From an uncultured Methanosarcinaceae archaeon (GTDB lineage Archaea > Halobacteriota > Methanosarcinia > Methanosarcinales > Methanosarcinaceae): 64,000 nt of DNA. Below, piece after piece: positions 23,104 through 44,387 of the stretch; position 1 is the first letter of the stretch; each line of letters starts with the position of its first letter. Below the pieces are notes generated by a model. That model was not told the DNA's origin and ran no database searches. It was given only the letters and a program-made list of their open reading frames with translations. The stretch covers positions 128,001-192,000 of the forward strand of contig CAVSHT010000011.1 of NCBI GenBank assembly GCA_963727895.1, in the 5' to 3' direction. A program made the translations under genes and the position numbers.

Positions 23104-24527
23104 GCTACAATACCTCCAATAAAATCACTTACATAATTTTCAAGCCTATCCCTGTCACCTACAATTTCTATCTTTCCGTTATTTTTTTTATTGATTTCCC
23201 ATACATGTTGTGTGTCAAAACTTTCTTTATATGTTATTTTTGCATTTAGTCCACGCAAACGTCCTCTTCCCACACTTGCTTCACCACCTAATGGTAAATC
23301 ACCGGTCCATAAATCTTTCAGCAGGAGTAGTAAGAGTCCTATTTGGGCACTTTCTGGTTTTTGGATCTGTACTTTAAATTTAACGTTTGTTCCCTTCTGC
23401 TCAAAAATTGGTTGTTCATTAAAAAGTGCTGTAGGGAGAGAGCTACCAGTGAAACGGTCAATCTTGATACGTTGTTGCACAAGGTTCAAGGGATTTGTGA
23501 TTTCGTTTTCAGTTGTTATTAGCTGACTTGCAGAAGCTTTATCTGAAGGAGATTTGATTTCTGGACCAAATAATCTGTTTATCATTTCGCTGGCTTTTTC
23601 TTCGCTCCCAATAGTTTTTGCAATACGAAATGCTCTTGCTCTTAATGAACCCGCCAAGCTGGTACCACTTAAAACAGGAATTGACTCTCCGTTTCGGTTT
23701 GAATGAAGATGAACCATATCTGGAGCATCGGCTTTATCATACCCTGACCTAATGATCATGGAACCATCAAGAGAAAAAGTGGCATTCATTGTGAAAAGGT
23801 GTCTTTTATCAATTAGGTTACTTTCATTAATGCCTAATAAAGTAAAAATGTTCTGACCACGCTTTTCCTCCTTCAGATCCTCATCCAGCCAATTAATTAG
23901 CCCTTTAGGAGTTGTTAAGTTGTAGCGGCAGACATTCCATTCTTTTATCTTACAGCTACCAAATCCTCTCCTCTTACGAAAACCTAAAGATATTTCTCCT
24001 TTTTCCAATCCTTTTAAAGCAATAGCCAGACCAAGAAGTAGTTTTTCTTTTCTTGTATCTTCTTTCGGGGTCAATAATTCCATTTCGATGGAGAAACAAG
24101 TACCTGCTTCAATCAGTTCAAAATCAAATTTGTGTTTATCTTCTGCTGTTCGAGTCTTGTTATCGATTTTTACTCCGTCTCTCAATTCTACCTTTGGTTT
24201 TTCACCCAATGAATCGTTAACAATAAGCAGACTTTGTTCACCTTCATCGTCTTCCTGGTTACCAAATAGATTCATATATAGTGATTTTTTGTCACCTTGT
24301 TGTCCGTAACCGTGTTCATATTCCCTCAAATAACTTCGCAAAGCACCAGCTAAAGACGCGCCAGTCAAAAGAGTCTTACCTTCTAATGGATCTAATGCTA
24401 ATGGGATATCCACCAGCTCATCGTGGTCACCTGCGCCAAAATATGTTGGTGTTTCCAAAACAAGGCTTCCAAGGATAGTGATTCTCTCTACAATCTCTCG
24501 ACTTTTCAACCAATGAGAATTATCCAT
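23100..24527 (-). CDS. cas7: Tandem Cas7-Cas7 (Csm3-group) RAMP
   Basis: Two RAMP repeats: GASLAGALRS/RRGFG and GTSLAGSLR/GGEASVGRG. Confidence 0.85.
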   Translation of the reverse strand: MDNSHWLKSREIVERITILGSLVLETPTYFGAGDHDELVDIPLALDPLEGKTLLTGASLAGALRSYLREYEHGYGQQGDKKSLYMNLFGNQEDDEGEQSLLIVNDSLGEKPKVELRDGVKIDNKTRTAEDKHKFDFELIEAGTCFSIEMELLTPKEDTRKEKLLLGLAIALKGLEKGEISLGFRKRRGFGSCKIKEWNVCRYNLTTPKGLINWLDEDLKEEKRGQNIFTLLGINESNLIDKRHLFTMNATFSLDGSMIIRSGYDKADAPDMVHLHSNRNGESIPVLSGTSLAGSLRARAFRIAKTIGSEEKASEMINRLFGPEIKSPSDKASASQLITTENEITNPLNLVQQRIKIDRFTGSSLPTALFNEQPIFEQKGTNVKFKVQIQKPESAQIGLLLLLLKDLWTGDLPLGGEASVGRGRLRGLNAKITYKESFDTQHVWEINKKNNGKIEIVGDRDRLENYVSDFIGGIVA

Positions 24528-26082
24528 TGTTTACCTCCTTGGATGCTTTGTGAAGAACTGCATCAATCAGACGAGCAGTGTATTCACGAGCCAGATTATC
24601 ATTTAAATCTGATTTTATATTTCCTAACGAGGGTAAGTTATTTTTATTAACTTGAAGTATATCCCAAACACTTTGTGGATTTGCTGCAAATTCCTTAATC
24701 CACTGTTCCAGTGATTTTCCTTCAATCTGGGCATTTTGAAACTGATCACTTGCAGTTTTTTTCATTTTATCCAGGTGACTTGTAACTATGGACAAATCAT
24801 CCTCACTCAAAGATCGACGAACTATCACGCGCATGCGGGACAGCTGAGATTTCTTTGGAATGGATTCTTTTGTTATTTCCAATTTGTTAACTGCCTTGAT
24901 TAAATCTCGATCCAGCTTTTCTTTAGTCATCCTGCTAACAATTCTTTTAGCCAAGCACAAGCTATCCGGATCTTTTATTTCGTAAGGTAAAGTAGATTCT
25001 TTAAACTCCCACTTTTCTGCTTTAATTCCATTTACTTGGTGCCAGTTGACAGCAATTCGTCCATAACCTTCTTCTCTTTTTTCTCCAATCCCAGTGATCT
25101 TGAGTGTTTCTAACCGATCAAGCAATTCTGAACTTTTTTCGTAAACAAATACGCTGCCTGCTCGAATAGCTAAAACCTGAGGAAGGGGAAGATTCCAGGT
25201 ATTATTGAAGCCTCCTCTTATCCGCGTGCTTACAAAGGCTTTTTTAAGAGACTTTGACTCCACACCTAAAACGGAATTGATGTTTGTGCTGTAAGCGCCA
25301 GTATTCTTGTCGCAGATAAGAGTATCACTTAAAAGAGTAACTACTATTGTGTTGTCTTCTTCATCGCCAACAGTAAAATATTCTTCCCAATTATCACAAA
25401 TGTTTATGTTATTGATCTTTACATGTCCGTAGCCTGCAAGATGTGATTTCCCTAAATTAAAGATCGCTCCGTCTGTTAATAAATCTTTAATCTTTTTAAA
25501 GCATAATTCATTCTCAGCTAATATAACACCGGAGAAATCTTGACCTGCTTCCAATGCTTGATAACGAAAAATTGTACTTTCTCCAGCAGTCTCTCTTTGT
25601 CTATTCGCACGAAAGATATGTATTTGGACTTGATTAGAAGGTTGATATAAAATGATTCCTTCTCCCTCATCGTTTTCAAACAAATAACAAAAAGGTTCAG
25701 AAACTTTTTTCCAATTTCTTTCAGGGTCATTCTCTCCGTTGTCTGAAAAATCCCCTGTCGCAAAGTCATATATTATGTTATCAGGATCACCTTTTTCTAC
25801 ATGCCATGAAAGAGGAGTAGGTAAAGACCGGCTATAATCTTTATTTGAAGGATATGCATTTAAGAAGCGTACAGCTCCATCAAAAAAAAGCTCTCTAAAT
25901 TCAGCGTCTTCCGCATCGATTGAGCTCTTCGGTTTTCCTTGGAGATACTTGCCTATCAATGCCCCTCTAATTACACTGCTAGGAATAAATTCAAATCCAA
26001 TCGCACTGTTTGGATCCCCTCCACTTATATCGTTTACCAATAAGGGTTCTAATAAATGTATATTGAAAGTCAATGCTTTCAT
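24520..26082 (-). CDS. csx10: Csx10 (Cas5 group) with C-terminal small-subunit-like helical region
   Basis: IPSSVIRGA, LGKSHLAGYG, AGSVFVY, GIGEKREEGYG; SQLSRMR helical tail. Confidence 0.8.
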   Translation of the reverse strand: MKALTFNIHLLEPLLVNDISGGDPNSAIGFEFIPSSVIRGALIGKYLQGKPKSSIDAEDAEFRELFFDGAVRFLNAYPSNKDYSRSLPTPLSWHVEKGDPDNIIYDFATGDFSDNGENDPERNWKKVSEPFCYLFENDEGEGIILYQPSNQVQIHIFRANRQRETAGESTIFRYQALEAGQDFSGVILAENELCFKKIKDLLTDGAIFNLGKSHLAGYGHVKINNINICDNWEEYFTVGDEEDNTIVVTLLSDTLICDKNTGAYSTNINSVLGVESKSLKKAFVSTRIRGGFNNTWNLPLPQVLAIRAGSVFVYEKSSELLDRLETLKITGIGEKREEGYGRIAVNWHQVNGIKAEKWEFKESTLPYEIKDPDSLCLAKRIVSRMTKEKLDRDLIKAVNKLEITKESIPKKSQLSRMRVIVRRSLSEDDLSIVTSHLDKMKKTASDQFQNAQIEGKSLEQWIKEFAANPQSVWDILQVNKNNLPSLGNIKSDLNDNLAREYTARLIDAVLHKASKEVNNG

Positions 26083-26768
26083 GGCATCACCTTTTCACAA
26101 AATACAGTAAAATAATTTTCAGTAACGTTTATTCCGTTTTCATCACAAAGAACAGCAACAAGTTTACCCCTCCCACGATTACGACCCGTACCAGCTCTCC
26201 TGAAAGCTTTTATGCAAGCTGCTAACAAAGGTAGATCCAAACCAGATGGATCTTTTGTAAACGATAATTTCGCCTCAAATGATGTTTCCCTAAGCACTAC
26301 CCTCATTGAACGTAGAGATCTTTTTTTAGGTGCTCCTGATTTTTCGTCAATCGAAGTTTGACGACGAATAGAAGTCAGAGAATTCAGTATATCTTCACTA
26401 CTTAATCTCATTGAGCTGCGAGATTTTTCAAGCTCGTATGCGACAGTTTTTCTCAAATCCGCTGGCAAAGTGGCATTACTTATGTGAAGTATAGCTTTAT
26501 CTGAATCACTGCTTCCGGGATTTCCAAAAAGGTGTTGGGAAGATTCATAGAATTCTTCTTGGAATTTCACGTCATGATTTTGTTCATTTAAGGAAAAAAG
26601 GATGTTTGCACACTCTTCTTCAAGCAAGCCTTTCAGAGTTCTCCCGTTCAAAAAAGGTAATCCACATTTGTCATGCATTACTTCTACATCGACCAGACCC
26701 GCTAAACCGTCTCCCCTACCAAAAGTTGAGTCACTTTTTATAGTAAATTTTAACCAGAATGTTTTCAT
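26079..26768 (-). CDS. csm3: Cas7 (Csm3-like) RAMP
   Basis: GLPFLNGRTLKGLL; GTGRNRGRG Gly loop. Confidence 0.85.
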   Translation of the reverse strand: MKTFWLKFTIKSDSTFGRGDGLAGLVDVEVMHDKCGLPFLNGRTLKGLLEEECANILFSLNEQNHDVKFQEEFYESSQHLFGNPGSSDSDKAILHISNATLPADLRKTVAYELEKSRSSMRLSSEDILNSLTSIRRQTSIDEKSGAPKKRSLRSMRVVLRETSFEAKLSFTKDPSGLDLPLLAACIKAFRRAGTGRNRGRGKLVAVLCDENGINVTENYFTVFCEKVMP

Positions 26769-28454
26769 TTTCTGCCCCCTTCAAGCTGAACAAAAAAATC
26801 GAGAGCTTCAATTGCATCAAAGCAAGTACAAGTATTATCAACCCAGCCTGTTTTGTCAGATTCTTCGTTGTTTTTTATTTTAGGGAGTGGCTGTTCTTTT
26901 GGAAGCGAGTCATTATATATTTTTATGAATTTTTCAACTTCATGGGGTCCATTACGTAAAACCTCTCTAAGGCGCATGATTTTGTTATGTTTACCCTCCC
27001 ATTCTTCACCCTTGAATTTTGAAATAATTTCTTCAAAAGTGTTCCAGGAGCACCAGTCTGTTCCTACGGATTCTCCAAGGCGTAATGGACGCATGTTTAA
27101 ATTGCCACATATTTCTGATGAGCCTTCTTTCCATTTGATTGTATATTCACGCTTTCTAATGTTCTCAATACTTTCAATTACTCCACTAGAAGCAAAGTGC
27201 CAATCTATGGCAGAAATTTTTCCTTCTTCAGAAGGAGATGCTTTTTCAATTCCTTTTATACGTGATTTCGCGGATTCTGCCAAGTTGTTTGCCAGTTTTA
27301 AAGCTTGGTAAAATGGATAATGAGTTTTTACAATAGCTATTCCAGCTCTAGCAGAGATCGGATGTCCATCGCTCAACTTCTTGTCCTTGGATGTCAATTG
27401 GCGTAACAGTAATTCAGAAAGAGTTAATCCCAATCGTCCGTCGCAAACAAAAGTTATATCATCGCCACCGAAGACAATTGGTCGGAAAGGTAATTTATTT
27501 TGGAATTCTACTAACCCCCCCAATTTTGCATATTCCTTCTTCGTCTTTTTGAGATTCAAGCAACCTAACTATGGCATTTCTGATTGCCTTACTACTTGCT
27601 TCTTCAATTGAATCCGAAAGAGCACGAATAGAATTTATGTATTCACGGTTGTCTTTCCAATGTCTTTTTGAATATTCTGAAATTCTTTTTCCCATTCCAT
27701 TTCCATCGATATGAACAACAGCAATGTAACTAGACTCATTTTTGGAACCGATTTCATTGAAATCATATACAAAATCTATACCACGATCTTTTTCATCCTT
27801 ATTTAGAAATTTGTTGCAAAGTCTGTCATTAGATGAACGGAAAAAATCCAATTTTGTAGATATCTCTCTCGAAACCCTAATTTCTGTTCCATCATCTTTT
27901 CTAGTCTCATCTTTTCTAGTCTCGGAAGCTGGAAGACCCGTATACTGACAAGAAGCATTCACCCCAATTCCAAGAAGAGGGGATGAGTGAATATAGTTGT
28001 ATTTTTTTTGTGTTATTTTTTTATGGAGAGTTTCCCTTACTGTTTTTTCAAGGGTATCTAGGTTATCTTTATCCCATATGAAGTTGTTATGAGCGATAAT
28101 TAACTGTAAGCCTGGTGCTTTTAAAAGAACTTTTTTAGTATATTCTCGTGTAAATTTTTTGGCAAGATCCTGGTTCTTGAATAAAATTACATTGTTTCCT
28201 CCCCCAGAATAAACAAGCTCGGAATCCAAATCATCTTTCTCAATCTTTTTATTGTTTAATGTTCTAGAGTTTAAATCCAGATTAGTTTTTTCTATATTAG
28301 TCGTTCCAATTTTTTTCAATTCCTCATAGACCATTTCATGGGTTACAAAATTAACCAGTCCAGAGGCCCCAACGTTCTGTTTCAGGTTGTTGCTTCCAAA
28401 AATATAATCTTGGATCCCAACAGTATCTATGACTGTGACTGTGAATTCTGTCAT
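26765..28454 (-). CDS. cas10: Cas10, HD-less, GGDD intact; frameshift near 27500-27560
   Basis: DTVGIQDYIF, YSGGGN, HIDGNGMG, FGGDD. Confidence 0.9.
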
Positions 28455-28470
28455 AAAAAACCTTCTTATA

Positions 28471-29676
28471 TCAAGATGTCAACCATTCCTTCAGATAAAT
28501 GGAAAGATTTTGGATCTGTTCCGCACCAAATACTCTAAACTTGTTTTCTAAATGCCACTCTTCCTTAATTTCTTTTTTAATTATTTCAGGGCTAGCGTCA
28601 GAACTTCTGTCTGATGCAAAACATACTACTCCTATTTTTGCTTCATCCCCACCTAACTGCTGACCGCGGACATAAGCTTCAAATAACTTTTGCTTTACAA
28701 TACTTTTTTTACTTGCAGTTGTACAAGAAACTACGAATAATTCATATCCTCTTAAAATAGCCACATCTAACTCAAATTTGTTATAGTTGAATTTTGCTCC
28801 TAAAACATGATCATGGATTTTACATTCCTCAGCTACCTCTTGAAACATTAATAGTGTATAGTCTTCCAACCAATTACCATCAAACCAACTAGCCAAATTC
28901 TCAACTTTTATTCCCCATTTTTTTGCTAGATCCTCTAAGGTGCTGCAATCTTCCCAAAAATTAGCCAAATTTTCAAATGGCGGATCAATAGGCAAAATTA
29001 CATTTTTCAGTTCAGGTTTGTTCAATATTTTACCCAAGTTTTCGGACCTTAATTTTTTGTCACACCATTTCCGAAATTCTGTAAACAGATCATTTGCCAA
29101 AACTTCACAAATTTCGGGTATAAATACTTCTCTTTTATTATCTATTTCGTATCCATGCAAAGAAAAAAGTTCTTCAATTGATGGTTTGACAGATAAGCTT
29201 ACAGGAATTCTTTTTGATGATGAATCCCTCGTATCTATTACTAATTCCAGGCTACGAGCATCGAGATAACTAAAAACAGAATCTTGATCTGCATCTAGAA
29301 CGGCCTTATATGCATTTACTGCCATAGCCTTTGTTCCACCAGTATAGTTTAGCCCAAGTTTTTGTTTCCCTTTTGAGTATTCAGTTATTTTTTTGTATAT
29401 ATCTCTGGAGTCTGATTCATTCACAAGAATTTTAGTCCACCTTTCTGAAGGAATATTAAGTACTGTGATAAGATCATTTGCGATTTTGTTTGTTTTAGAA
29501 GTATGGATAAAGATAATATGGGAAGATGGCTTTGCGAGTAAGTGATAAACAACATAATTTGGTAAAGGATTTGTACCGATCAGCAGAAACAGGTAGTCAC
29601 TTCTATACTCAGCAAATTTGTCAGACTCATTTTTTGTTGCAATTTTTTCACCCAAAGTTTGAATCCTCCTTTTCAA
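28471..29676 (-). CDS. CARF + PD-(D/E)xK nuclease effector (Card1/Can2, DUF1887-like)
   Basis: LLIGTNPLPNY, NYTGGTKAM, GNWLE, ELDVA...VVSCTT. Confidence 0.8.
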   Translation of the reverse strand: MKRRIQTLGEKIATKNESDKFAEYRSDYLFLLIGTNPLPNYVVYHLLAKPSSHIIFIHTSKTNKIANDLITVLNIPSERWTKILVNESDSRDIYKKITEYSKGKQKLGLNYTGGTKAMAVNAYKAVLDADQDSVFSYLDARSLELVIDTRDSSSKRIPVSLSVKPSIEELFSLHGYEIDNKREVFIPEICEVLANDLFTEFRKWCDKKLRSENLGKILNKPELKNVILPIDPPFENLANFWEDCSTLEDLAKKWGIKVENLASWFDGNWLEDYTLLMFQEVAEECKIHDHVLGAKFNYNKFELDVAILRGYELFVVSCTTASKKSIVKQKLFEAYVRGQQLGGDEAKIGVVCFASDRSSDASPEIIKKEIKEEWHLENKFRVFGAEQIQNLSIYLKEWLTS

Positions 29677-29686
29677 AGCTATGTAT

Positions 29687-30370
29687 TTAAATAATCAGAA
29701 TCGTATTTTCTTCACAGTTCCAAACCCCTTCGCAACCCCTTTCCCCATCTCCCATAAAATCCGGAATCAAAAAATTGGCTATAAAACCGCCTGTAAAAGA
29801 AGTAAAATCCATTTGTTTGTACTTTGAACATCTGAGTTCCACATCAACATCGCATTTTATGGTATCAGGAACAGTATATCCAAAAGCTTTTGACATGGAA
29901 AGCAGGTTTCCTATGAGCGTTTTCCTGAGGATTTCCTTTTTTTCTTCAGGGTTTCTGGTCTCAAAGAATTTCTCTTCGTTTTCTTTATTAAGGGCAAGCC
30001 AGGGAGTGAGAAATTCGTAAAAGTAGAGGTTTTTTGTAAGGCCAAAATCATGTTTTTTAAGCCTCAGAGACCTTTCAGTGATTTCAAAGTCCTCATAAGG
30101 AAGAGTAACCGTATCAAATTTATCAAATATATCTTTTAATATTTCTGCTCCTTCATTTATACCAACCACTAAAGGTATCCTATCAAGAACTTTGTATTGC
30201 ACCAGAGGGTACCGGTAATAAAACCTGTCAGTATTATGATTGTGGAGCTGGTCGTATTCATTGAATTTTGACGCAAAGAACCCACGGATCTGATTTGCAT
30301 CCCCTCTGAACTCTTCTGAGCCTTCAAAAGTCATTTCAAGAGTTTTGAGTTTAATATTTTCAGGAATCAT
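29687..30370 (-). CDS. cas6: Cas6 (Cas6b-like); Gly-rich loop shifted out of frame near 29750
   Basis: YRYPLVQYK, TPWLALN; alternate frame gives MGKGVAKGFGTV. Confidence 0.85.
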   Translation of the reverse strand: MIPENIKLKTLEMTFEGSEEFRGDANQIRGFFASKFNEYDQLHNHNTDRFYYRYPLVQYKVLDRIPLVVGINEGAEILKDIFDKFDTVTLPYEDFEITERSLRLKKHDFGLTKNLYFYEFLTPWLALNKENEEKFFETRNPEEKKEILRKTLIGNLLSMSKAFGYTVPDTIKCDVDVELRCSKYKQMDFTSFTGGFIANFLIPDFMGDGERGCEGVWNCEENTILII

Positions 30371-30491
30371 GAGAAATACAACAAATTTTTTAACAATAGT
30401 TTTTCTAATTTTGTCTAAATTGGTTTTAGCATAAATAACTTTTGATATTTATCGATAAATATTTCTCCAAAGATAAAAAATTTAAATATAT

Positions 30492-31682
30492 TTAAATGAA
30501 CGCTTTGATCTTTTTATTAAAACTTTGCTCAATTATTTCAAGCCCAGCCGCACAATCCGTATGTTTGTAATAGTTTACCCACGGGTCAACAACTTGGTAG
30601 ATATTTTTAATTACACTATTAATAGACTTAATTTTATTTATATCGTCGTTTCTTACTTTTTCTGTGCGTCTTATACTCTCTATGCTCTTTATTACATTTT
30701 CAATAGACCCTTCAGTGGGTACAACTTTTATGCCATTCCCTGTCCCGTTGTTCTGTTCAATTTCCTGAAAATAGAAGCCTACGAACTCAAAACCATTTGT
30801 GACAGTCCCAACATAGGTCTTTTCTTTGTTTAATTTGAGCCCCAGTACAGCCAGTACAGCCCTAACTCTGTTAGGATTGATCCATTCTTTTGAAAGGATC
30901 ACAAAATCATCTGAAAAACGCACAAGATGCTCAACTGAGTCCCCTTCAACATTCTTCAACCCTATTTCAGTCCACTGATTGTCAAACTGGTCAAGATAGA
31001 AGTTTAAAAGAAGAGGCGAGATAATTCCGCCCTGAAGCAATCCTTTTCCTGAATCTTTTCCGGAACTGTTTCCAACTGAACCTTTTTTAAGCCAGGACTT
31101 GATCAGAGAAAGTATCAATTTATCTTCGATTCTTATTTTAAGAGCCTTCATGAGCTTATCATGAGGAATGCTATCAAAACAGTCCTCAATATCCCCTTTC
31201 AAATAATGGATGCTCCCGGTTTCAAGCCATTTGTAAACTTCAAGGCTGGCGAGTTTTGCAGACCTGTAAGCACGGTAGCCATAGGAACAGTTTTCAAAAT
31301 CAGCTTCAAAAATCGGCTCAAGAATAAGTTTTACAGCTCCTTGGACAAGCCGGTCTTTTAAGGTAAGAATTCCGAGCTGCCTTGTTTCCCCATTCTTTTT
31401 TGGGACTTTGACTCTTTTTACTTCGCCAGCCTCGTACTTTTCACTTTTAAGCTCCTTCTTTACTGAGCGAATGAAGTTTTCAACCCCTGAAGTCTCTACC
31501 TGCTGGATAGTCAGAAAATCAAAACCAGTTCCTTTTGTATTTCGGTTCAGCTTCTTCCAGGCAGTGTAAAGGACTTCGTCTTTCAAAAGCAGCTTTTTAA
31601 GATTTTTAAACCGTTTTTTAGGATTGCTCTTAGCGTTATTGTACAGTTTCAGTTGAATTTTGGCTATTTTTTGCTTCTGGAT
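30492..31682 (-). CDS. CRISPR-associated group II intron-like reverse transcriptase
   Basis: RQLGILTLKDRLVQ, SYGYR, GDIEDCFDSI, LQGGIISPLL, RFSDDF; frame stays open upstream of 31586 to an ATC 7 nt after a GGAGGT RBS. Confidence 0.9.
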   Translation of the reverse strand: MQKQKIAKIQLKLYNNAKSNPKKRFKNLKKLLLKDEVLYTAWKKLNRNTKGTGFDFLTIQQVETSGVENFIRSVKKELKSEKYEAGEVKRVKVPKKNGETRQLGILTLKDRLVQGAVKLILEPIFEADFENCSYGYRAYRSAKLASLEVYKWLETGSIHYLKGDIEDCFDSIPHDKLMKALKIRIEDKLILSLIKSWLKKGSVGNSSGKDSGKGLLQGGIISPLLLNFYLDQFDNQWTEIGLKNVEGDSVEHLVRFSDDFVILSKEWINPNRVRAVLAVLGLKLNKEKTYVGTVTNGFEFVGFYFQEIEQNNGTGNGIKVVPTEGSIENVIKSIESIRRTEKVRNDDINKIKSINSVIKNIYQVVDPWVNYYKHTDCAAGLEIIEQSFNKKIKAFI

Positions 31683-31845
31683 TTCAGATACCTCCGTAAA
31701 TGATTCTTAATTTTCAATCATCTACGGAACCTGATATATTTAGCCACGAAGAATTCGGATTTTTTCCGAATTAAAGGTCTTGACAATTGTTTTCTTGGAA
31801 CTGTTTCTCAATAAAAATGGAAGTATTAGATAAACAAAAAGAGGA

Positions 31846-32557
31846 ATTTCAATCCTTGTTTTAGTGGAAACTACTTCTTGACAACAAAATCAGACGGGAG
31901 CTTGATTTTGCCGGGGGAGCAAGTTTCAATCTTTGTTTTAGTGGAAACTACTTCTTGACCCGCTAACGACCCCATGATAATATTCGATCTCGCAGTTTCA
32001 ATCCTTGTTTTAGTGGAAACTACTTCTTGACAAAAAAAATAGAGAGGTTACAAAAGTGGATGACATTCTGAAGTTTCAATCCTTGTTTTAGTGGAAACTA
32101 CTTCTTGACAAATAGCGGAAGTGATACCACGAAAACCAATAATACTAAGTTTCAATCCTTGTTTTAGTGGAAACTACTTCTTGACATGAAGATTGCTGAA
32201 TTGAAGAATCAGCGGAATGAGACGTTTCAATCCTTGTTTTAGTGGAAATTACTTCTTGACAGTAGTGACCGATGACAAAAGCGATAATTGAAAAGTTTCA
32301 ATCCTTGTTTTAGTGGAAACTACTTCTTGACACTTAAACAGTGGCAATGTCCCAGGAATAATCACAAGTTTCAATCCTTGTTTTAGTGGAAACTACTTCT
32401 TGACGATTTTATGGAAGAGCTTAAACTCTTATTTGAGGAGTTTCAATCCTTGTTTTAGTGGAAACTACTTCTTGACTTTCAAATGAATCGTATGATTATG
32501 GAAATGAGACAATACGGACGGTTTCAATCCTTGTTTTAGTGGAAACTACTTCTTGAC
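31846..32557 (-). CRISPR. Leader-distal segment: 10 repeats of GTCAAGAAGTAGTTTCCACTAAAACAAGGATTGAAAC
   Basis: 37-bp repeats with unique 34-44 nt spacers; terminal repeat degenerate. Confidence 0.97.
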
Positions 32558-32596
32558 GAAGCAAAATGGAAGAAACAAAAGAAGCGAAGCATACAG

Positions 32597-35500
32597 GTTT
32601 CAATCCTTGTTTTAGTGGATCTTGCTCACGAATCCTTCACTTTTTCCCATTGTCAACGGACTTTGTAGGTTTCAATCCTTGTTTTAGTGGATCTTGCTCA
32701 CGAATTGTTAACGAAACTATCATGCACAAAATATACCCTGTATGTTTCAATCCTTGTTTTAGTGGATCTTGCTCACGAATATGTAAAAGGGCAGATAATA
32801 TCCAGACTATACGTCCTCGTTTCAATCCTTGTTTTAGTGGATCTTGCTCACGAATTATAAGTTTGTGCGTTAGCTATTGAAATCAATGAAAGTTTCAATC
32901 CTTGTTTTAGTGGATCTTGCTCACGAATCCAATCTTGTGAGGTTTAATTCCCACATATTGTAGGTGTTTCAATCCTTGTTTTAGTGGATCTTGCTCACGA
33001 ATACAAATTTTACATATTTTGTTTTGGAAGATTTTAAAGTTTCAATCCTTGTTTTAGTGGATCTTGCTCACGAATTAATATTAGGAGTTACGATCCCGTG
33101 TGCTGACAAGTGTTTCAATCCTTGTTTTAGTGGATCTTGCTCACGAATATTGCTACCCCTTACCAAAGGTCTAGCAAAAAATGTTTCAATCCTTGTTTTA
33201 GTGGATCTTGCTCACGAATAACTGCTAAACTTGCTATAGATGCTATTAGAAATGGTTTCAATCCTTGTTTTAGTGGATCTTGCTCACGAATAAATGAGAA
33301 GTTCGGTTCGGGCTTATATATTTTATAGTTTCAATCCTTGTTTTAGTGGATCTTGCTCACGAATCTACAAATCCCCAACTTGCGCAAGGGCTTCCAGATT
33401 TGTTTCAATCCTTGTTTTAGTGGATCTTGCTCACGAATCGTTTTTTGTTCAAAAGAGTTATCTAATTTATTTGTAGTTTCAATCCTTGTTTTAGTGGATC
33501 TTGCTCACGAATAGATGTTTGAAAAGTAGCTGTTTCCTTGTGGGATGTGTTTCAATCCTTGTTTTAGTGGATCTTGCTCACGAATACTTAGCCATCTGCT
33601 CTTGTGTTTTGCCCTCTGCAATGTTTCAATCCTTGTTTTAGTGGATCTTGCTCACGAATGGTGACGGTTTCGTTGAGGGATGATGGCACAGTCTGAGGTT
33701 TCAATCCTTGTTTTAGTGGATCTTGCTCACGAATTCCGAAATCACCATCTGGATCATCTACCCATACTTCAGTTTCAATCCTTGTTTTAGTGGATCTTGC
33801 TCACGAATTCCGAAATCACCATCTGGATCATCTACCCATACTTCAGTTTCAATCCTTGTTTTAGTGGATCTTGCTCACGAATTCCGAAATCACCATCTGG
33901 ATCATCTACCCATACTTCAGTTTCAATCCTTGTTTTAGTGGATCTTGCTCACGAATTAAGTAAATGAAATCATCAAATGGCATTCTAGAACTATGTTTCA
34001 ATCCTTGTTTTAGTGGATCTTGCTCACGAATATGCTAAAGAAATCATGGCAGTAATGCAGGTTTACGGGTTTCAATCCTTGTTTTAGTGGATCTTGCTCA
34101 CGAATGCTTCTACAATTATTCCCTCTTTGGTTCTATAGCGTTTCAATCCTTGTTTTAGTGGATCTTGCTCACGAATCAGTGCATAACCATAATTGTTTAC
34201 AAAAGTGTTATTGGTTTCAATCCTTGTTTTAGTGGATCTTGCTCACGAATAAAGAATATCCAGCCTCATGTAGCTATTACATGGAAGTAATGTTTCAATC
34301 CTTGTTTTAGTGGATCTTGCTCACGAATTGACGGCATGTTTTTTGTTGAGTTAACAGGATCTAAGTTTCAATCCTTGTTTTAGTGGATCTTGCTCACGAA
34401 TATATTCCGATGATTGGGGGGATACATGGTATTTGGGTTTCAATCCTTGTTTTAGTGGATCTTGCTCACGAATATATAATATTCAAAATTAAAAATTGTG
34501 ATATCTATATGTTTCAATCCTTGTTTTAGTGGATCTTGCTCACGAATAGTGAAATGTCCGAGGGTGGCAGCGAAATAGTTTAGTTTCAATCCTTGTTTTA
34601 GTGGATCTTGCTCACGAATTATAAAAAATACTTCAGGCGGTGTAGACATCTGTCCAATGTTTCAATCCTTGTTTTAGTGGATCTTGCTCACGAATTCAAC
34701 ATATAACAAAGATATTGTTGAGGCATTTGGGTAGTTTCAATCCTTGTTTTAGTGGATCTTGCTCACGAATGGATGTTAGCCAGAAACTTGCGGTCTCGTG
34801 GAATAAGTTTCAATCCTTGTTTTAGTGGATCTTGCTCACGAATGGATGTTAGCCAGAAACTTGCGGTCTCGTGGAATAAGTTTCAATCCTTGTTTTAGTG
34901 GATCTTGCTCACGAATCATTGAATGGACATGAATCTCAGAAGGGGTATTGGTTTCAATCCTTGTTTTAGTGGATCTTGCTCACGAATACATGCACATCTA
35001 GGATACAAACAATCCGTACACAACTGTTTCAATCCTTGTTTTAGTGGATCTTGCTCACGAATATCATCCCAATCCAGTTCCCAATTTCAGTTTTGTTTCA
35101 ATCCTTGTTTTAGTGGATCTTGCTCACGAATAATATGCTCCATAATACAATATTCTTTTAATCATGTGTTTCAATCCTTGTTTTAGTGGATCTTGCTCAC
35201 GAATAAAAAGGGTATGCGTTTACCTTTCTGGAAACCCGATGTGTTTCAATCCTTGTTTTAGTGGATCTTGCTCACGAATATGCAAGAGCCACCTAGGATT
35301 AATTGATAAGTTGGTTTCAATCCTTGTTTTAGTGGATCTTGCTCACGAATAGGTGCCCTTGCTATTACCGCGATGGGCTTTTTTATGTTTCAATCCTTGT
35401 TTTAGTGGATCTTGCTCACGAATGATTATTCATGGACTTCTGAAGGAGTTGATAAATTTGAGTTTCAATCCTTGTTTTAGTGGATCTTGCTCACGAATTC

Positions 35501-38500
35501 TGCGAGTACCCATTGCCCTAGAATATATCTTTTGGTTTCAATCCTTGTTTTAGTGGATCTTGCTCACGAATCGCAAAAAGATAGGAGATTAACGACTATG
35601 CAGAGAAGTTTCAATCCTTGTTTTAGTGGATCTTGCTCACGAATCAAAATAAGAAAAGACACTGTAATTGTAGAAATGAGGTTTCAATCCTTGTTTTAGT
35701 GGATCTTGCTCACGAATTAATTGAAAGCGAAAACTATACCATTTCAATCCAAGAGTTTCAATCCTTGTTTTAGTGGATCTTGCTCACGAATCTCTCCTTT
35801 AAGAAATTCCGGCATAACATTTTTTACATAAAACTGTTTCAATCCTTGTTTTAGTGGATCTTGCTCACGAATAAGTCTGTTAATTATTGTTTCAAGTGTC
35901 ATTTGTTGTTTCAATCCTTGTTTTAGTGGATCTTGCTCACGAATGTTACTGGGTTTGTTGCATTTGAGGTTGGCTGTAGGTGTTTCAATCCTTGTTTTAG
36001 TGGATCTTGCTCACGAATTCTATTAGGATACTCTCATTCATATGCAATAGAGCGAGACATGTTTCAATCCTTGTTTTAGTGGATCTTGCTCACGAATCAA
36101 TCGTTCCAAACATCATACAATATTGTAAAACAAAGTTTCAATCCTTGTTTTAGTGGATCTTGCTCACGAATCAGATTATAGTTTTTGAATCAGAGGGAAG
36201 TATATTGTTTCAATCCTTGTTTTAGTGGATCTTGCTCACGAATACATAGAACCATATTGGTTTTGCGTTCCGATAACTGGTTTCAATCCTTGTTTTAGTG
36301 GATCTTGCTCACGAATTTGTATACATTTGTATTTGTGTGTAACAGAACGGTGCAGTTTCAATCCTTGTTTTAGTGGATCTTGCTCACGAATCTTTGCTCG
36401 TTCTTCTAGTCTACCCTTTAGTTCTGAGTTTCAATCCTTGTTTTAGTGGATCTTGCTCACGAATAATATCAAGGTTCCTGGAAAGAAGGTCCACTTCCAA
36501 TGTTTCAATCCTTGTTTTAGTGGATCTTGCTCACGAATAATTAAAGCGTTTATGTATCTGGCTCCGTTGATTGATAGTTTCAATCCTTGTTTTAGTGGAT
36601 CTTGCTCACGAATGCAGAAAATTATTTGATGAACAAAAATATCCTGGGTTTCAATCCTTGTTTTAGTGGATCTTGCTCACGAATTGTTTATCAGGTCACA
36701 AAAGAAGAGTGTATGACGTTAGTTTCAATCCTTGTTTTAGTGGATCTTGCTCACGAATGTAAATTAGGAGGAAAACAAAAGATGGAAACTTTAAGTTTCA
36801 ATCCTTGTTTTAGTGGATCTTGCTCACGAATGTTGCGTCGTAATCTCCGGCTGCAATGCCATAACCGTTTCAATCCTTGTTTTAGTGGATCTTGCTCACG
36901 AATAATAAGTCCAGTCGTCCTATTCCAATAACATCTTCTGTTTCAATCCTTGTTTTAGTGGATCTTGCTCACGAATCAGGCTTCAGCATGTGGGGTATCG
37001 TTCCATTCGGGGTTTCAATCCTTGTTTTAGTGGATCTTGCTCACGAATAAGTAATTATTATGCATCTAGATATGGAGTGAAAGTCGTTTCAATCCTTGTT
37101 TTAGTGGATCTTGCTCACGAATCCAATGACGACGATTTACCCACATTGATGTTAAAACTATGTTTCAATCCTTGTTTTAGTGGATCTTGCTCACGAATAA
37201 TAGAACCTGAATGTATTCAGGAATACCAACATCGGAAGTTTCAATCCTTGTTTTAGTGGATCTTGCTCACGAATAAGATGAAAAATTGAGACCGACTTCG
37301 AATGCATTGTTTCAATCCTTGTTTTAGTGGATCTTGCTCACGAATAACATGTGCTGATACCTCATCGGGGTCATCCATCTCAAGTTTCAATCCTTGTTTT
37401 AGTGGATCTTGCTCACGAATGCTCATATGAAATTGAGACAAAACGCAGAGGTTGGTTTCAATCCTTGTTTTAGTGGATCTTGCTCACGAATTGCACATTT
37501 ACCCTGTATGGGAGTTATAATTCTAATTGTTTCAATCCTTGTTTTAGTGGATCTTGCTCACGAATTCATGCATTGTGGCTAGAAAACGCAAAAGAAGCAA
37601 GTTTCAATCCTTGTTTTAGTGGATCTTGCTCACGAATTAGCTCAAAAAATCACAAAACGTTGTCCTTCTTGTAAGTTTCAATCCTTGTTTTAGTGGATCT
37701 TGCTCACGAATACTTCAATTTTCATTTTCAACATCTCCTTTCCTGTTTCAATCCTTGTTTTAGTGGATCTTGCTCACGAATTAGGTGCCCTTGCTATTAC
37801 CGCGATGGGCTTTTTTATGTTTCAATCCTTGTTTTAGTGGATCTTGCTCACGAATATTATCTTCAAAATTCGCTCGAAATGAAATTCCTAGTTTCAATCC
37901 TTGTTTTAGTGGATCTTGCTCACGAATACACTTTTTCAATGCTATTAATATTTCCTCATCTGGTTTCAATCCTTGTTTTAGTGGATCTTGCTCACGAATT
38001 AAGTAAATGAAATCATCAAATGGCATTCTAGAACTATGTTTCAATCCTTGTTTTAGTGGATCTTGCTCACGAATTATCATATTGGCGTTTGAATAGTTTC
38101 CAATGCAGATGTTTCAATCCTTGTTTTAGTGGATCTTGCTCACGAATCAGGATTCTAGTTTAAGATACAGATCTGCGGCGGTTGGGGTTTCAATCCTTGT
38201 TTTAGTGGATCTTGCTCACGAATTTCTATTTTCTATAATCCGTATTATAGTTTCTAGTTTCAATCCTTGTTTTAGTGGATCTTGCTCACGAATAGATGCA
38301 TATAACTCCTTATGTTTCGGTGGATCTTTTGTTTCAATCCTTGTTTTAGTGGATCTTGCTCACGAATACTTTGTCCTCTTTTAATAGTACCATCACTATC
38401 CATGTTTCAATCCTTGTTTTAGTGGATCTTGCTCACGAATAAGATTTCAAGCGGAAGGAATAAGAAACGATTGTAGTTTCAATCCTTGTTTTAGTGGATC

Positions 38501-41500
38501 TTGCTCACGAATTTGAAGTATTTAATACGTATAGACAGTCTCTAATTGCGTTTCAATCCTTGTTTTAGTGGATCTTGCTCACGAATGGATCTTGGACGTT
38601 TAAGACTGCTACCGTAAAATCTTAGTTTCAATCCTTGTTTTAGTGGATCTTGCTCACGAATATGTCCGCATTAGGAGATAATAGACTCAATCAGTCTAAG
38701 TTTCAATCCTTGTTTTAGTGGATCTTGCTCACGAATTAGGATCCTTCAGAACGAAGGTGTTAATGCAACAATGTTTCAATCCTTGTTTTAGTGGATCTTG
38801 CTCACGAATTATTTTAGTACCTTTAAACAAATCTCTAATTGATTTGTGTTTCAATCCTTGTTTTAGTGGATCTTGCTCACGAATTGTGAGCGTTTTTTTC
38901 AAATTCAGGGACTGAGTAGGTTTCAATCCTTGTTTTAGTGGATCTTGCTCACGAATACAAACACCCTAATTGCTGTTATTGATACTTATAAACTGTTTCA
39001 ATCCTTGTTTTAGTGGATCTTGCTCACGAATCGAAGTTAAAAGAATTGATGAAGAAATATCCCGAAATCGGTTTCAATCCTTGTTTTAGTGGATCTTGCT
39101 CACGAATCATGATGTGTGGAATGTTGACCCTTGACAGTGCAAGTTCGTTTCAATCCTTGTTTTAGTGGATCTTGCTCACGAATCAATTACTCTGTTTCCA
39201 GCTCCAGTATTACTCACCGCGGTTTCAATCCTTGTTTTAGTGGATCTTGCTCACGAATCCAGCAGCGTACAGTGTCATAGATGATGCCTGCAAGAGTTTC
39301 AATCCTTGTTTTAGTGGATCTTGCTCACGAATACGTATGAGTTGGATATTGACACGCAAACCTAGGTTTCAATCCTTGTTTTAGTGGATCTTGCTCACGA
39401 ATTTATTAGAAAAATCCATTAACTCTTCAAAGCTCAAGGTTTCAATCCTTGTTTTAGTGGATCTTGCTCACGAATCTCTTTTGTAGTCGAAATGAGCTTA
39501 CCATATGCATTAGGTTTCAATCCTTGTTTTAGTGGATCTTGCTCACGAATGATTGGACTGGGACAGCAGCAGGAACTATTTGGGTGTTTCAATCCTTGTT
39601 TTAGTGGATCTTGCTCACGAATTGAATACGGTACTTTCAACATTCAGTATGCTCTGTCGTTTCAATCCTTGTTTTAGTGGATCTTGCTCACGAATCCAAT
39701 GTAACTTTATATTTGATTTAGAGAGATTATGTTTCAATCCTTGTTTTAGTGGATCTTGCTCACGAATCCAGCAGCGTACAGTGTCATAGATGATGCCTGC
39801 AAGAGTTTCAATCCTTGTTTTAGTGGATCTTGCTCACGAATAGGACGAACGAAAATTAATGAAAGATATTGAAATGTTTCAATCCTTGTTTTAGTGGATC
39901 TTGCTCACGAATGAAGCCGATGGGTTAGAAGAAACTATTCAAAAAAGTTTCAATCCTTGTTTTAGTGGATCTTGCTCACGAATTATTAGAAGAATGTTTA
40001 GGATCAACCTGTTGAAATATGTTTCAATCCTTGTTTTAGTGGATCTTGCTCACGAATATGAAAGTACAGGAGCGAGGTCTACACTTCGCAGGAGTTTCAA
40101 TCCTTGTTTTAGTGGATCTTGCTCACGAATTATCAACGATATGTTGAACTTCTGGAACAATCTTGTTTCAATCCTTGTTTTAGTGGATCTTGCTCACGAA
40201 TTTTGTTGGCAGCAAATGATAGCGCGTCGTCAATTGGTTTCAATCCTTGTTTTAGTGGATCTTGCTCACGAATGAATCAAATCAGAATTTGAGTCTCTTG
40301 TTAAATTTGAAGTTTCAATCCTTGTTTTAGTGGATCTTGCTCACGAATATTTCTTGCTATATACTACAATAACACTAATAGTGTTTCAATCCTTGTTTTA
40401 GTGGATCTTGCTCACGAATTCCGTACTCCGTGGTAAAACGGATGCTGAGTTAGTGTTTCAATCCTTGTTTTAGTGGATCTTGCTCACGAATTCCAATGGA
40501 ACGATGACGTTTTAAAAGAAATCCCTGATGTTTCAATCCTTGTTTTAGTGGATCTTGCTCACGAATTTTTTGATAAGCCTCTTGAATTCAAAGAATGGTT
40601 TGAATATCGTTTCAATCCTTGTTTTAGTGGATCTTGCTCACGAATAGACATTTACAGCCTCCTTAGATCCCTGATGCAGCGGTTTCAATCCTTGTTTTAG
40701 TGGATCTTGCTCACGAATTTAAAACATGGAATTAACTCTCAACGATAATGTAACGTGTTTCAATCCTTGTTTTAGTGGATCTTGCTCACGAATCAGGATA
40801 CCCGTTGCTTTAGCTGCGGGAGGAATGCGGTTTCAATCCTTGTTTTAGTGGATCTTGCTCACGAATACTCTAAAATAGAAGATATCAAAGCCATGAATGA
40901 GTTTCAATCCTTGTTTTAGTGGATCTTGCTCACGAATCTTAGATCCGTGATTGATATATTGGTTGTAGGAGTAGTTTCAATCCTTGTTTTAGTGGATCTT
41001 GCTCACGAATAAGACACAAGCTGAATTATGGAATCAGAGGGCATTGTGTTTCAATCCTTGTTTTAGTGGATCTTGCTCACGAATTTCACTGGACTTGAGG
41101 GAATTGACGACAAGGGACATAGTTTCAATCCTTGTTTTAGTGGATCTTGCTCACGAATTTGTATTTAGATTGCGTAGGATTTTGAAGGTGAAGTTTCAAT
41201 CCTTGTTTTAGTGGATCTTGCTCACGAATTGGATACCTCAAGTATTAGTACAGAAGGGGAATCTGGTTTCAATCCTTGTTTTAGTGGATCTTGCTCACGA
41301 ATTTGCGGCTTTAACAATTGAAATTATCCCATTGATAGGTTTCAATCCTTGTTTTAGTGGATCTTGCTCACGAATCTCTCAAAATTGAAACAATTGTGTT
41401 TAGAATTTGATTGTTTCAATCCTTGTTTTAGTGGATCTTGCTCACGAATCCGGTTCAATCCCGGATGACCAGACCTATAGTTACTGTTTCAATCCTTGTT

Positions 41501-41522
41501 TTAGTGGATCTTGCTCACGAAT
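32597..41522 (-). CRISPR. Main segment: ~120 repeats of ATTCGTGAGCAAGATCCACTAAAACAAGGATTGAAAC
   Basis: Invariant 37-bp repeats, ~73-bp period (count estimated from span); orientation from the ATTGAAAC 3' handle and leader position. Confidence 0.98.
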
Positions 41523-41635
41523 AGGGCAAAATTTTCCGTCATTTGGCCAGAAAAAGCCTGAAATAAGCCCTTTTTTTGGGCTAAAATTCTTGCTGGAAAA
41601 TTATCAAACCCTTTATAAATACAAGAAAAATCTCT
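41523..41635 (-). promoter_or_regulatory. CRISPR leader
   Basis: Non-repeat AT-rich stretch between cas4 and the first repeat, with TTTATAAA at ~41612. Confidence 0.75.
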
Positions 41636-42367
41636 TCATACGCAGATATTCCTGTAACAGCAATCTACGCATTTTCTAGAAGACTTAGCGGTTTTGGGAT
41701 ATAAACCTTTTTGAACAATATCGAGTATTTCCCCAATAATTTTCTCAGCCTTTTTGAAATCAGAAGTAGTAATCTCCATTTCTTTAACCAGGCTGTTGCT
41801 TCTGGTAAAACATATGTAAGCACGATTTACTTCAATATCGTAATTTTCTCTAATCAAAAGAGCCTGCAAAACCAGCTGAAATTTATAGGTTTTAAAAATC
41901 TTGTCTTTATACTCGGCAAATTTGTATTCAAGAGGAGCAGCAGTTCCATCTTCAAGAAAAAGCACCTCATCAACTATTCCCTTTATATGATGTTGTTTTG
42001 AAGCAATGAAAACGTCACTCTCTTTCCTTATGCAGTTTAGTTTTTTTCTCACATAATCCCTGTTGGTTAGTTTCCTTGTTTCATGGACCTCGCGGCCTTT
42101 GATAACCTTAAACCTTTTCTCTTCATACTGGGGAATATCGAGGCAATACATATAGTAGATAAAACGAGAACAGAAAAGGTATTCAAGAACATCTGAAATT
42201 CGGATTATTGTTCCGGAATCTTTATCAAAATCAGGCTCAGTGTATATCCCTTCTTCATTATCAGGATCACTTTCAGGAGCTATATCTTTTTCACAATCTA
42301 TTGCAGCTTGCTGATCACTTCCCGCACAAGCAGAAGAGCTACCTTCTTTGAGAGAAAAATTCGTCAT
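41636..42367 (-). CDS. cas4: Cas4 with acidic N-terminal extension
   Basis: YLFCSR, GIVDEV, PLEYK, CVDCCYRNIC. Confidence 0.92.
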   Translation of the reverse strand: MTNFSLKEGSSSACAGSDQQAAIDCEKDIAPESDPDNEEGIYTEPDFDKDSGTIIRISDVLEYLFCSRFIYYMYCLDIPQYEEKRFKVIKGREVHETRKLTNRDYVRKKLNCIRKESDVFIASKQHHIKGIVDEVLFLEDGTAAPLEYKFAEYKDKIFKTYKFQLVLQALLIRENYDIEVNRAYICFTRSNSLVKEMEITTSDFKKAEKIIGEILDIVQKGLYPKTAKSSRKCVDCCYRNICV

Positions 42368-42381
42368 ACTTACCTCAAAAC

Positions 42382-42688
<307 letters not shown>

Positions 42689-42758
42689 TCTTATTTTATC
42701 AAATTATTACTTTCGAATTATTACTTTACCTTTTCACAAACTTATCGCGTTAAAAGTT

Positions 42759-43731
42759 TTATTTCCCGATCAGGCTGTTTGCAATCCTGTGACAGTCAAA
42801 CTGGATTGTATTTCCAATTTTTATTTTCCTTCCCTTGTAGCTTATTTCTTTATCAAAAGTTTCATTGACAGCCTGAATAAGGACGGCTTTACCTTCTTTG
42901 TTAAGAGTCATTCCATTAGGAATTTCATCAAAAAAGCTGTTTGAAACCTGTTTTTTCGAGAAAAGATTGAAAACGGTCCTGTCAATGTGGATGCGGTACA
43001 TTTCAATCAGGTCAAACACAAAAGATTTTTTGTTGTAGTCATCCGTATGGTTGAAGCCGACATAAGGATCAAGTCCTGCTATAATGCACGCTTTTTCCAC
43101 CTTTGAATACAAAACCCCATATCCGTAATTCAAAAGGCAGTTGAATCCGTCCTTTGCAGGATTCCGGCTTCTGCCATTGAATTTCCATCTGTCCGGTAAA
43201 AGAAAACTCAAAGCTTCAAAATAGTATCTGGAAGCCATTCCCTCAAGCCCCATGATTTTTCCCCGCATCTCATCAAGTTTTCCTTCAAGGACTTCAAGCT
43301 GGGATTTCATGTCTTCCATTCCAGAAATGTAGTCGTCAAGTTCGTCCTTCTGGTCAGGCCTGTTCTTTTTAAGGTCTTTCAAAAAAAGAATCTGGCTGTC
43401 AATCTTCTGCTCAATCCAGCCTTTTGCAAGCCTGAACCCTTCAGGCTCTTCCGAAATTTCAAGCTGCCTTCTTCTTATGTAAGTCGTGCTCCCAAGTTTT
43501 GAGTGCCATACTCTGCCGTAAGGGTCCCCGAAATTATCCAGAAAAACGATGTCAATATTGTTTTCTACTGCAAATTTAATGGCATCGGTTGTTATGGTTG
43601 CAGAAGTTGTAATCAGGATGCTGTCAACTTTCTTTTCAGAGACTTCGAAAGTCTTGTCGTCAACTTTTACAAGAAAAGCAGTTGTTCTGTTTTTTTAGAA
43701 ATGAACCGCGGGTGTTGATTACAAGCTGCAT
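42759..43731 (-). CDS. cas1: Cas1 (frameshifted 5' part)
   Basis: MQLVINTRGS start; MGLEG, NCLLNYGYG, GLDPYVGFNH, DLIEMYR. Confidence 0.9.
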
Positions 43732-44387
43732 TTTCTCACCGTTCCAAAACCGCGAGATACGGATTTTCCAAGACCGAAATAGTCGGGGATAAGGAAATTT
43801 ACCATAAACTCCCCTTTGAACGTAGCAATTTCCACTCCTTTCATTTTACTAGAACCTGGGTTCATATTAATCTCGCATTTGATCTGTCCCGGAACAGTAT
43901 ATCCAAGAGACTTGGACATCGAAAGAATGTTTCCAACCAGAGTTTTTCGAAGGAGTTCTTTTTGTGCTGTAGAGTCCATCTTCTTGTATTTGCCAGTGAA
44001 GTTTTCTTGGTTGAGGGCAAACCAGGGAGTTTCAAATCTGTAGGTATGGATTTTGTCTGAAATGCCAAAATCTTGTTCTTTAAAAGAGATTTTCTTTTCC
44101 AGAATTTCATATGTGGATTCACCTAGTTCGATTTTTTCATATTTATTGAAAATTTCCTGCAAGACTTCTACACCCTCATTTATCCCGAAAACTAGAGGAA
44201 TCCCTTTCAAAATTTGATATTGAACCAAAGGATACATATAGATAACTTTATCACAATTGTGTTGGTGCAAAAGTGTATACTCATTAAACCGGGTAGCGAA
44301 AAAACCTCGAAGTTTTGAGGCGTTTGTTCCTACTTTTCGGTCAGGAACAAGAGTTAGAGTTAGCGTTTTGACTTTCATGTCAATCAC
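43719..44387 (-). CDS. cas6: Cas6 (Cas6b-like), paralog of the 29687 gene
   Basis: YPLVQY, TPWFALN, GLGKSVSRGFG. Confidence 0.9.
   Translation of the reverse strand: MIDMKVKTLTLTLVPDRKVGTNASKLRGFFATRFNEYTLLHQHNCDKVIYMYPLVQYQILKGIPLVFGINEGVEVLQEIFNKYEKIELGESTYEILEKKISFKEQDFGISDKIHTYRFETPWFALNQENFTGKYKKMDSTAQKELLRKTLVGNILSMSKSLGYTVPGQIKCEINMNPGSSKMKGVEIATFKGEFMVNFLIPDYFGLGKSVSRGFGTVRKCSL

Follow-up and report, generated by a model that had tools for sequence, protein, structure and literature searches.

A CRISPR array with two repeat families in a Methanosarcinaceae archaeon, the probable deletion product of neighbouring type III-linked and type I-B arrays

In an uncultured, methane-producing Methanosarcinaceae archaeon, a single CRISPR array changes abruptly from one repeat type to another. 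Comparison with related genomes argues that it is probably the deletion product of two neighbouring, co-oriented arrays with related but distinct repeat families, one linked to a reverse transcriptase (RT) and a type III-D-like module and the other to type I-B cas genes. The array occupies positions 31846-41522 of a 64,000-nt stretch of contig CAVSHT010000011.1 (assembly GCA_963727895.1); this whole stretch is referred to as the window, and all coordinates are given in it unless another locus is named. The assembly itself, designated G000, consists of 19 contigs and is 84% complete. Other genomes are designated by G numbers, and individual loci or contigs by L numbers.

The array contains 132 direct repeats of 37 nt, described here on the plus strand, with a start-to-start spacing of 71-81 nt. 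The 131 spacers are 32-44 nt in length and four spacer sequences recur. The array is divided as follows.

31846..32557, minus strand: A section (oldest end), ten type A repeats with the nine spacers in between
32558..32596, minus strand: junction spacer, 39 nt, of ordinary length
32597..41522, minus strand: B section, the type B repeat in 122 identical copies, with 121 spacers

Both repeats begin on the plus strand with the same 23 nt, GTTTCAATCCTTGTTTTAGTGGA, followed by AACTACTTCTTGAC in type A and by TCTTGCTCACGAAT in type B. By direct reading, these 14-nt ends agree at four positions and differ at the other ten. Among the ten A repeats, seven have the same sequence, and those at 31846, 31923 and 32224 carry one substitution each; the outermost of these (31846) is degenerate, with its last base altered in the sense of the CRISPR RNA (crRNA). 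A search of the window with the two 14-mers, allowing at most one mismatch, gave ten matches for A and 122 for B, all on the plus strand and within the array, and none on the minus strand. This confinement of both 14-mers to the array is far beyond chance. In the whole of G000 the 23-nt core has 132 matches, all inside the array, and no repeat was found on the other contigs. A sequence-only reading of this DNA had described ten repeats that run through one normal spacer into about 120 repeats of another type, with a common crRNA 3' part of about 22 nt. The switch within one array is confirmed, with ten A repeats, the ordinary 39-nt spacer and then 122 B repeats, and the common part measures 23 nt.

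Read on the minus strand, each repeat has ATTGAAAC as its end, and all cas genes on either side are encoded on that strand too, for which reason the minus strand was taken as the crRNA strand. That the ATTGAAAC tag is common to both repeat types, as had been stated earlier, can be read directly from the sequence. Neither repeat type forms a stable hairpin (-2.4 and -3.1 kcal/mol, no better than shuffled sequences). With its repeats, ATTGAAAC tag, leader and degenerate far end, the array is of the kind with 37-nt unstructured Cas6b-type repeats. No clear difference was found between A and B spacers in length (38.1 versus 36.5 nt, p = 0.098) or in guanine-cytosine content (0.379 versus 0.367, p = 0.72), and no spacer of the array gave a full-length match in the rest of G000. 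Four spacers are duplicated within the B section (33735-33920; 33957/38000; 34771/34844; 39259/39768), one B-section spacer is present three times in tandem, and the repeat-spacer-repeat unit at 33920-34031 is repeated 4 kb away at 37963-38074 with 100% identity. The duplicates are either the result of duplication within the array or an assembly effect.

The switch had furthermore been described as leaderless. No leader is present at the switch itself, but the array as a whole does have its own leader, at 41523-41635. Since this only leader sits at the right, beside the I-B genes, the A units form the leader-distal, oldest (trailer) end of the array. The elements that adjoin the two ends and that are needed for the comparison with relatives are listed here.

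41523..41635, minus strand: B-type leader, 113 nt; a TATA-like TTTATAAA is located some 90 nt from the first repeat, at 41612-41619
31587..31845, minus strand: trailer between the array and the RT gene, 259 nt, conserved in G118, G116, L072 and L073
30492..31586, minus strand: stand-alone group-II-intron-like RT (TIGR04416, 293.8 bits against a cut-off of 300; RVT_1)
29687..30370, minus strand: Cas6b paralogue of the RT/type III side ('Cas6A'; Cas6b_N and Cas6b_C), with an extra base at 29748 that distorts its C-terminus

Repeat ends were sought in a sample of 150 other genomes of the same family, including 34 of the same genus. The B-type end is present in 39 of the 150, including 32 of the 34 from the genus, and the A-type end in eight. 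The B leader contains TATTTATAAAGGGTTTGATAA and ends in TTTTGCCCT; it is conserved in ten loci, standing beside B repeats in the window, G116 (two loci), G138, G013, G028, G104, G144, G112 and G071. The window's B leader together with the 3' end of cas4 is 93.7% identical over 300 nt to the flank of the I-B array of G116, and its B leader region is 85% identical to that of G138. The A leader, which ends in TTGCTGAAAATAAGGGAAAACGACCCT, adjoins A repeats in G138, G078, G013, G118, G116 and G144 as well as relics in G146 and G116. Between the A and B leaders no alignment was obtained, and no leader was paired with the opposite repeat family among the loci examined.

Thirteen genomes of the same genus encode a Cas6 that is 83-94% identical to the RT-side Cas6 of the window, and all 13 loci were compared. 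The sequence-only reading had proposed a search for homologous loci with two separate arrays as a check, and such loci exist in G118, G116 and G144, each with a full RT, an A array, an A leader, a gap and a B array, the two arrays being co-oriented. Their A arrays comprise 12, 10 and 32 repeats, the gaps from A leader to B array measure 3.2, 4.2 and 2.8 kb, and the B arrays comprise 102, 54 and 56 repeats, respectively. The same tandem order of A array, A leader, gap and B array is also present in G138, G013 and G078. In G144 the gap contains cas1, cas2 and a csa3-like gene, which share 88-89% identity with the set that adjoins the A leader of G138; the gaps of G118 and G116 contain non-cas genes, apart from a 23-amino-acid stump of the A-linked cas1 that remains in G118. 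The RT of the window is 74-82% identical to the RTs that adjoin A arrays in relatives. The two sides of the locus have separate homologues, as the left side (22134-31817) aligns with G118 at 91% and the right side (41524-50726) aligns, also at 91%, with the separate I-B locus of G116.

The A leader motif is absent from G000, in which only one cas1 and no second copy was found (the assembly being 84% complete in both cases), and the A-linked cas1 and cas2 of G138 match only the I-B copies of G000, at 38% and 50% identity. With no gap in the window, and neither an A leader nor a second cas1 found in G000, a deletion through exchange between an A and a B repeat is the simplest reading. It had been suggested earlier that an RT/type III array was fused to the I-B array with loss of its leader and adaptation genes, and the separate leaders, separate arrays and gap-encoded cas1-cas2 of the relatives lend support to this origin, as far as comparison of sequences can do so.

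In the presumed ancestor, going from right to left along the minus strand, the I-B cas genes would have been followed by the B leader and the B array; after a gap of a few kilobases would have come the A leader, the A array, the trailer, the RT, cas6 and the type III-D genes. Within the gap, a cas1-cas2-csa3-like unit would have been transcribed divergently. If a B repeat and an A repeat then crossed over, or replication slipped from one to the other, within their common 23 nt, the DNA between them would have been lost: the B array would have lost its trailer end, the A array its leader-side part, and the gap and the A leader would have disappeared. A hybrid repeat formed in this way would be indistinguishable from a normal B repeat.

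The join also occurs elsewhere. Two of 177 family genomes contain the exact A-then-B junction, namely G000 and G028, the latter with three A repeats followed by 52 B repeats on a complete 4.2-Mb contig. In G013, the flanks of which are 96-97% identical to those of G028, eight A repeats, 603 bp with the A leader and 20 B repeats follow one another. Fused arrays were also found on two metagenome contigs, L072 (three A and at least 21 B repeats) and L073 (six A and at least two B repeats), each with an RT on the trailer side (75% and 82% identical to the window RT, respectively). The arrays of the window, G028, G013, L072 and L073 have no spacers in common. In a tree of the RTs, that of the window grouped with those of the unfused loci of G144, G118 and G116, apart from L072 and L073 (support 84/97, the rest of the tree being without resolution). 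This grouping is a hint that the fusions are independent of one another, and several independent fusions are likely.

Five of the 177 family genomes have the reverse junction, in which an A array has B repeats at its trailer end. The B-to-A junctions of G078, G146 and G116 were considered as reciprocal duplication products, and this was dropped on account of the mutual dissimilarity of the flanking gaps. At L057 (G136) and L060 (G116) one and the same spacer lies at the B-to-A junction in two species, so this relic junction was inherited and not formed twice. The B section of G028 (L033, 9978-13757) is layered: the trailer-near units alternate between ..CTCACGAAT and ..CTAACGAAT, and the 46 leader-nearest units all have ..CTCAAGAAT. 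The layering records how single-base changes of the leader-proximal repeat were copied forward.

Other loci among the 13 have lost the A array. The B array lies directly beside the RT in G146, G104 and G128, and in G140 a single B repeat lies beside the RT at a contig end. The RT is cut at amino acid 138 in G146, 176 in G104 and 181 in G140, and about 54 amino acids remain in G128. Truncated RTs with relics or contig ends are present in G136, G148 and G153, and the Cas6 locus of G112 and of G071 is without an RT. Taken over the eroded loci (L065 in G146, L079 in G104, L075 in G140, L063 in G128, L064 in G136, L074 in G148 and L077 in G153), the RT is eroded from its array-facing end at amino acids 121, 138, 176, 181, 200 or 208, or with about 54 amino acids left, and in four of these genomes a B repeat directly abuts the RT stump. 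The boundary between RT and array looks like a deletion hot spot at which the A array has repeatedly been removed and the RT disabled. At L066 (G120; 11845-13700) an orthologous RT and Cas6 are adjoined by 25 copies of a third repeat family, in which the first 22 nt are the same and the end is ..GGCTGTTGCTGTTTTAG.

Several observations weigh against an origin of the window array by deletion. A homology of 23 bp is short. The nearest relatives on the RT/III-D side, G118 and G116, have a gap without adaptation genes, which makes the exact loss in the window lineage uncertain. No spacers are shared with G013, G028, G037, G078, G116 (two loci), G118, G120, G128, G136, G138, G146, L072 or L073, which prevents mapping of the parental arrays and of the point of crossover, and a search for the junction spacer in metagenome contigs gave no match. 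The best public sequencing run shares only a fraction of 0.10 of the sampled words, all of them repeat words, and reads from four runs match at the repeat level only. As these matches continue into other spacers, the reads were assigned to other strains and give no verdict on the junction. The assembly is also not error-free, with 13 single-base insertions in the 9.2 kb of the I-B region and three in a conserved stretch of 3.2 kb.

Three other explanations were weighed. An incoming I-B module, together with its leader and B repeats, might have recombined with a resident A array at the leader end of the latter, in which case the B section would have been imported or added later and would never have been a resident neighbour. 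CRISPR modules do move between genomic contexts, as the window flanks beyond 20397 and 50726 are unlike the surroundings of either G118 or G116, and the I-B side of the window is nearest to G116 and the III-D side to G118. Such a replacement is nevertheless improbable: the tandem order is already present in G118, G116, G144, G138, G013 and G078, so a simple deletion suffices, and the I-B-linked array of G116 carries A relics and an A leader relic on its trailer side.

Very little weight is given to an artefact of assembly in which two separate arrays were joined through their common 23 nt. No reads span the junction, single-base insertions persist in an assembly that is incomplete and in 19 pieces, and the B section contains duplicated spacers. 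However, assembler overlaps are normally longer than 23 nt, and misassembly of the array is unlikely because the array lies deep within a 350-kb contig, because the ends that should have been left over are nowhere in G000 (no A or B repeat and no A leader being present on its other contigs) and because the same join is found in other assemblies, namely the complete contig of G028 and the two metagenome contigs. Finally, that an integrase or illegitimate recombination made the join without the 23-nt homology is hardly credible, for although B arrays do abut RTs cut at differing residues in G146, G104, G140 and G128, where repeat homology is impossible, the joins of the window, G028, L072 and L073 are in perfect repeat register, and their whole repeats and spacer of normal length favour an exchange from repeat to repeat.

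The insertions themselves were located by comparison with relatives: the window has 13 extra bases in the I-B genes (sites at 42521, 43673, 46369-46578, 47294, 47646-47719, 48172, 48623 and 48976), four in the III-D region (sites at 27513 and 29748) and three in a conserved stretch outside the CRISPR-Cas locus (6360, 6430 and 6882; four relatives). The small indels of the window are nearly all single-base insertions and lie outside homopolymer runs, with none in the 132 repeats. As a result cas8b, cas7, cas5, cas1, cas2 and cas10 are each split, and the RT-side cas6 has a distorted end. Since nearly all are insertions and they also occur outside the CRISPR-Cas locus, long-read consensus errors are their probable source and would likewise account for the 84% completeness in only 19 contigs. 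The indel-free repeats and an insertion rate that differs between regions weigh against consensus errors, and real decay of the I-B genes is possible.

Beyond Cas6A, the left flank of the array continues with a type III-D-like module.

28471..29676, minus strand: Card1-like CARF nuclease (CARF_Card1, 35.6 bits; Card1_endonuc, 25.1 bits, just below cut-off)
26765..28454, minus strand: small cas10, split into two open reading frames (ORFs), with weak matches to the Cas10 palm and an extra base near 27513
26079..26768, minus strand: RAMP protein (Pfam RAMPs, 35.7 bits)
24520..26082, minus strand: csx10-like gene (Cas5 of type III-D; TIGR02674, 153.5 bits, under the cut-off of 177)
23100..24527, minus strand: double Cas7-like RAMP protein (Csx7, Cmr4 and Csm3 models, all below cut-off)
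22537..23103, minus strand: csx19, a type III-D signature gene (TIGR03984, 129 bits against a cut-off of 35)
20522..22537, minus strand: type III RAMP protein of the TIGR03986 family (414 bits against a cut-off of 161)

In this module the profile scores of csx19 and the TIGR03986 protein are above their cut-offs, and those of csx10 and the cas10 pieces are below. The split in cas10 corresponds to a 1-nt insertion relative to G118, and the G138 counterpart is one ORF of 555 amino acids. The double Cas7-like protein has 96% amino-acid identity to that of G118. Next to this module, at 16980-18749, is a gene for a Schlafen group 3-like helicase (Pfam SLFN-g3_helicase, 300 bits), an arrangement like that of a defence island.

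On the right of the B leader lies the type I-B gene set.

41636..42367, minus strand: cas4 (TIGR00372, 168 bits)
42382..42688, minus strand: cas2, split into two ORFs (Pfam CRISPR_Cas2; extra base at 42521)
42753..43697, minus strand: cas1, interrupted (335 bits, two internal stops; extra base at 43673), the sole cas1 of G000
43719..44387, minus strand: Cas6b of the I-B module ('Cas6B'; profile match)
44380..46188, minus strand: cas3 helicase (TIGR01587, 136 bits)
46791..47493, minus strand: cas5b, split into two ORFs (profile match; extra base at 47294)
47713..48487, minus strand: cas7b (Csh2), split into two ORFs (profile match; extra base at 48172)
48586..50350, minus strand: cas8b, split into two ORFs (profile match; extra base at 48976)

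The set is complete in one operon (cas8b, cas7, cas5, cas3, cas6b, cas4, cas1 and cas2), of which cas8b, cas7, cas5, cas1 and cas2 are broken by single extra bases. Cas6A and the I-B Cas6b are 46% identical. Further out, an element of about 750 bp is present twice (448-1204 and 55620-56344) and encodes a 144-amino-acid protein with an IS1 InsA-like zinc ribbon and helix-turn-helix; copies with 93-95% identity are present on at least six G000 contigs, and there are many in relatives.

An array joined in this way would be transcribed from the B leader promoter as one precursor crRNA, which must cross 122 B units (about 9 kb) to reach the A units. The region for Cas6b cleavage and the 8-nt tag AUUGAAAC would be common to all units, so that I-B and III-D effectors could in principle load any crRNA. 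Cross-loading of crRNAs between effectors, which had been put forward earlier, may accordingly be read as an expectation from this common tag. The same reading had the two Cas6 paralogues sorting the crRNAs, and this is not favoured by the comparison, because the RT-side Cas6 clade adjoins pure B arrays in G104, G128 and G146 and a single B repeat in G140. Coupling of a Cas6 paralogue to a repeat type was looked for and not seen; the RT-side clade is found beside A arrays, pure B arrays and the third repeat type. Acquisition of new spacers would be confined to the B leader and carried out by the I-B Cas1-Cas2-Cas4, and the A units may be a frozen remnant beside an RT that would have neither its cognate leader nor its integrase.

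We propose that the leader-facing 14 nt act as an adaptation half of the repeat, concerned with leader and integrase specificity, and the common 23 nt as a processing and loading half. The 14 nt are read in this way because they face the leader and always occur with their own leader, and in G138 and G144 also with their own cas1-cas2. A wider and rather speculative extension would treat the 37-nt repeat as a two-module element, in which the 14 nt pick the leader and integrase (I-B or RT-linked) and the 23 nt serve Cas6 cutting and loading; the fusions and RT truncations might then reflect selection for type III memory under I-B adaptation, with RT-dependent acquisition shut down. If this were true, a single crossover could pass whole spacer libraries between the I-B and RT/III-D systems, which is possible because the 23-nt module is identical in both repeat families.

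Recombination between arrays is already established, and the array described here is probably a real and recurrent product of it. Portions of Kupczok et al. (2015, PMC4524480) and of bioRxiv 10.1101/2022.05.19.492656 describe arrays reshaped by repeat-mediated exchange and deletion, beyond acquisition at the leader. The partners in the window differ from these in coming from two repeat families that have leaders of their own and, among relatives, a separate cas1-cas2, and the product differs in its visible switch of repeat type and the loss of one leader. A search of full-text literature, with little coverage of subscription journals, gave no description of a natural array in which the repeat changes from one family to another that has a leader of its own.

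For Methanosarcina mazei, passages of Ulbricht et al. (2020, PMC7465815) report that the I-B and III-C leaders have their last 108 nt in common. The window resembles this system, and the Cas6 cross-cleavage of Thermus thermophilus outlined in part of PMC12102369, in that a pair of effector types is combined with a pair of Cas6 paralogues and a single 8-nt tag, and use of crRNAs by either effector is to be expected. Compared with those passages on M. mazei, the A and B leaders of the window family are unalignable and the sharing is physical, both repeat types lying on what would be one transcript. RT-CRISPR clade 1 of the Methanosarcinaceae is characterized, in sections of Toro et al. (2017, PMC5541045), by a stand-alone group-II-like RT, unfused to Cas1, by a type III module and an array. 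The window RT is like the clade 1 of those sections in being unfused to Cas1 and adjoined by a type III module and an array, a likeness of gene order and not of tree placement, and is unlike it in having no cognate cas1-cas2 or leader.

Degenerate terminal repeats, by which the trailer end of an array differs from the remainder, are the subject of parts of PMC12839519, and the window array is similar to what is described there in that its trailer end differs and its outermost A repeat carries a point change. It is dissimilar in that the same difference at ten of 14 nt is present in all ten A repeats, seven of which are identical, so the A repeats are not a product of decay by point mutation. 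For annotation, the warning is that two repeat families may occur within a single array, and that a differing block at the trailer end is not always decay.

The division of labour to which the repeats point is one in which the leader-side half tracks the leader and the far half is common. The loci of the family provide a natural series at one position, from separate arrays through fused arrays to loss of the A array with truncation of the RT. It illustrates the way in which a type III/RT system can be deprived of its adaptation apparatus and become dependent on the I-B system next to it.

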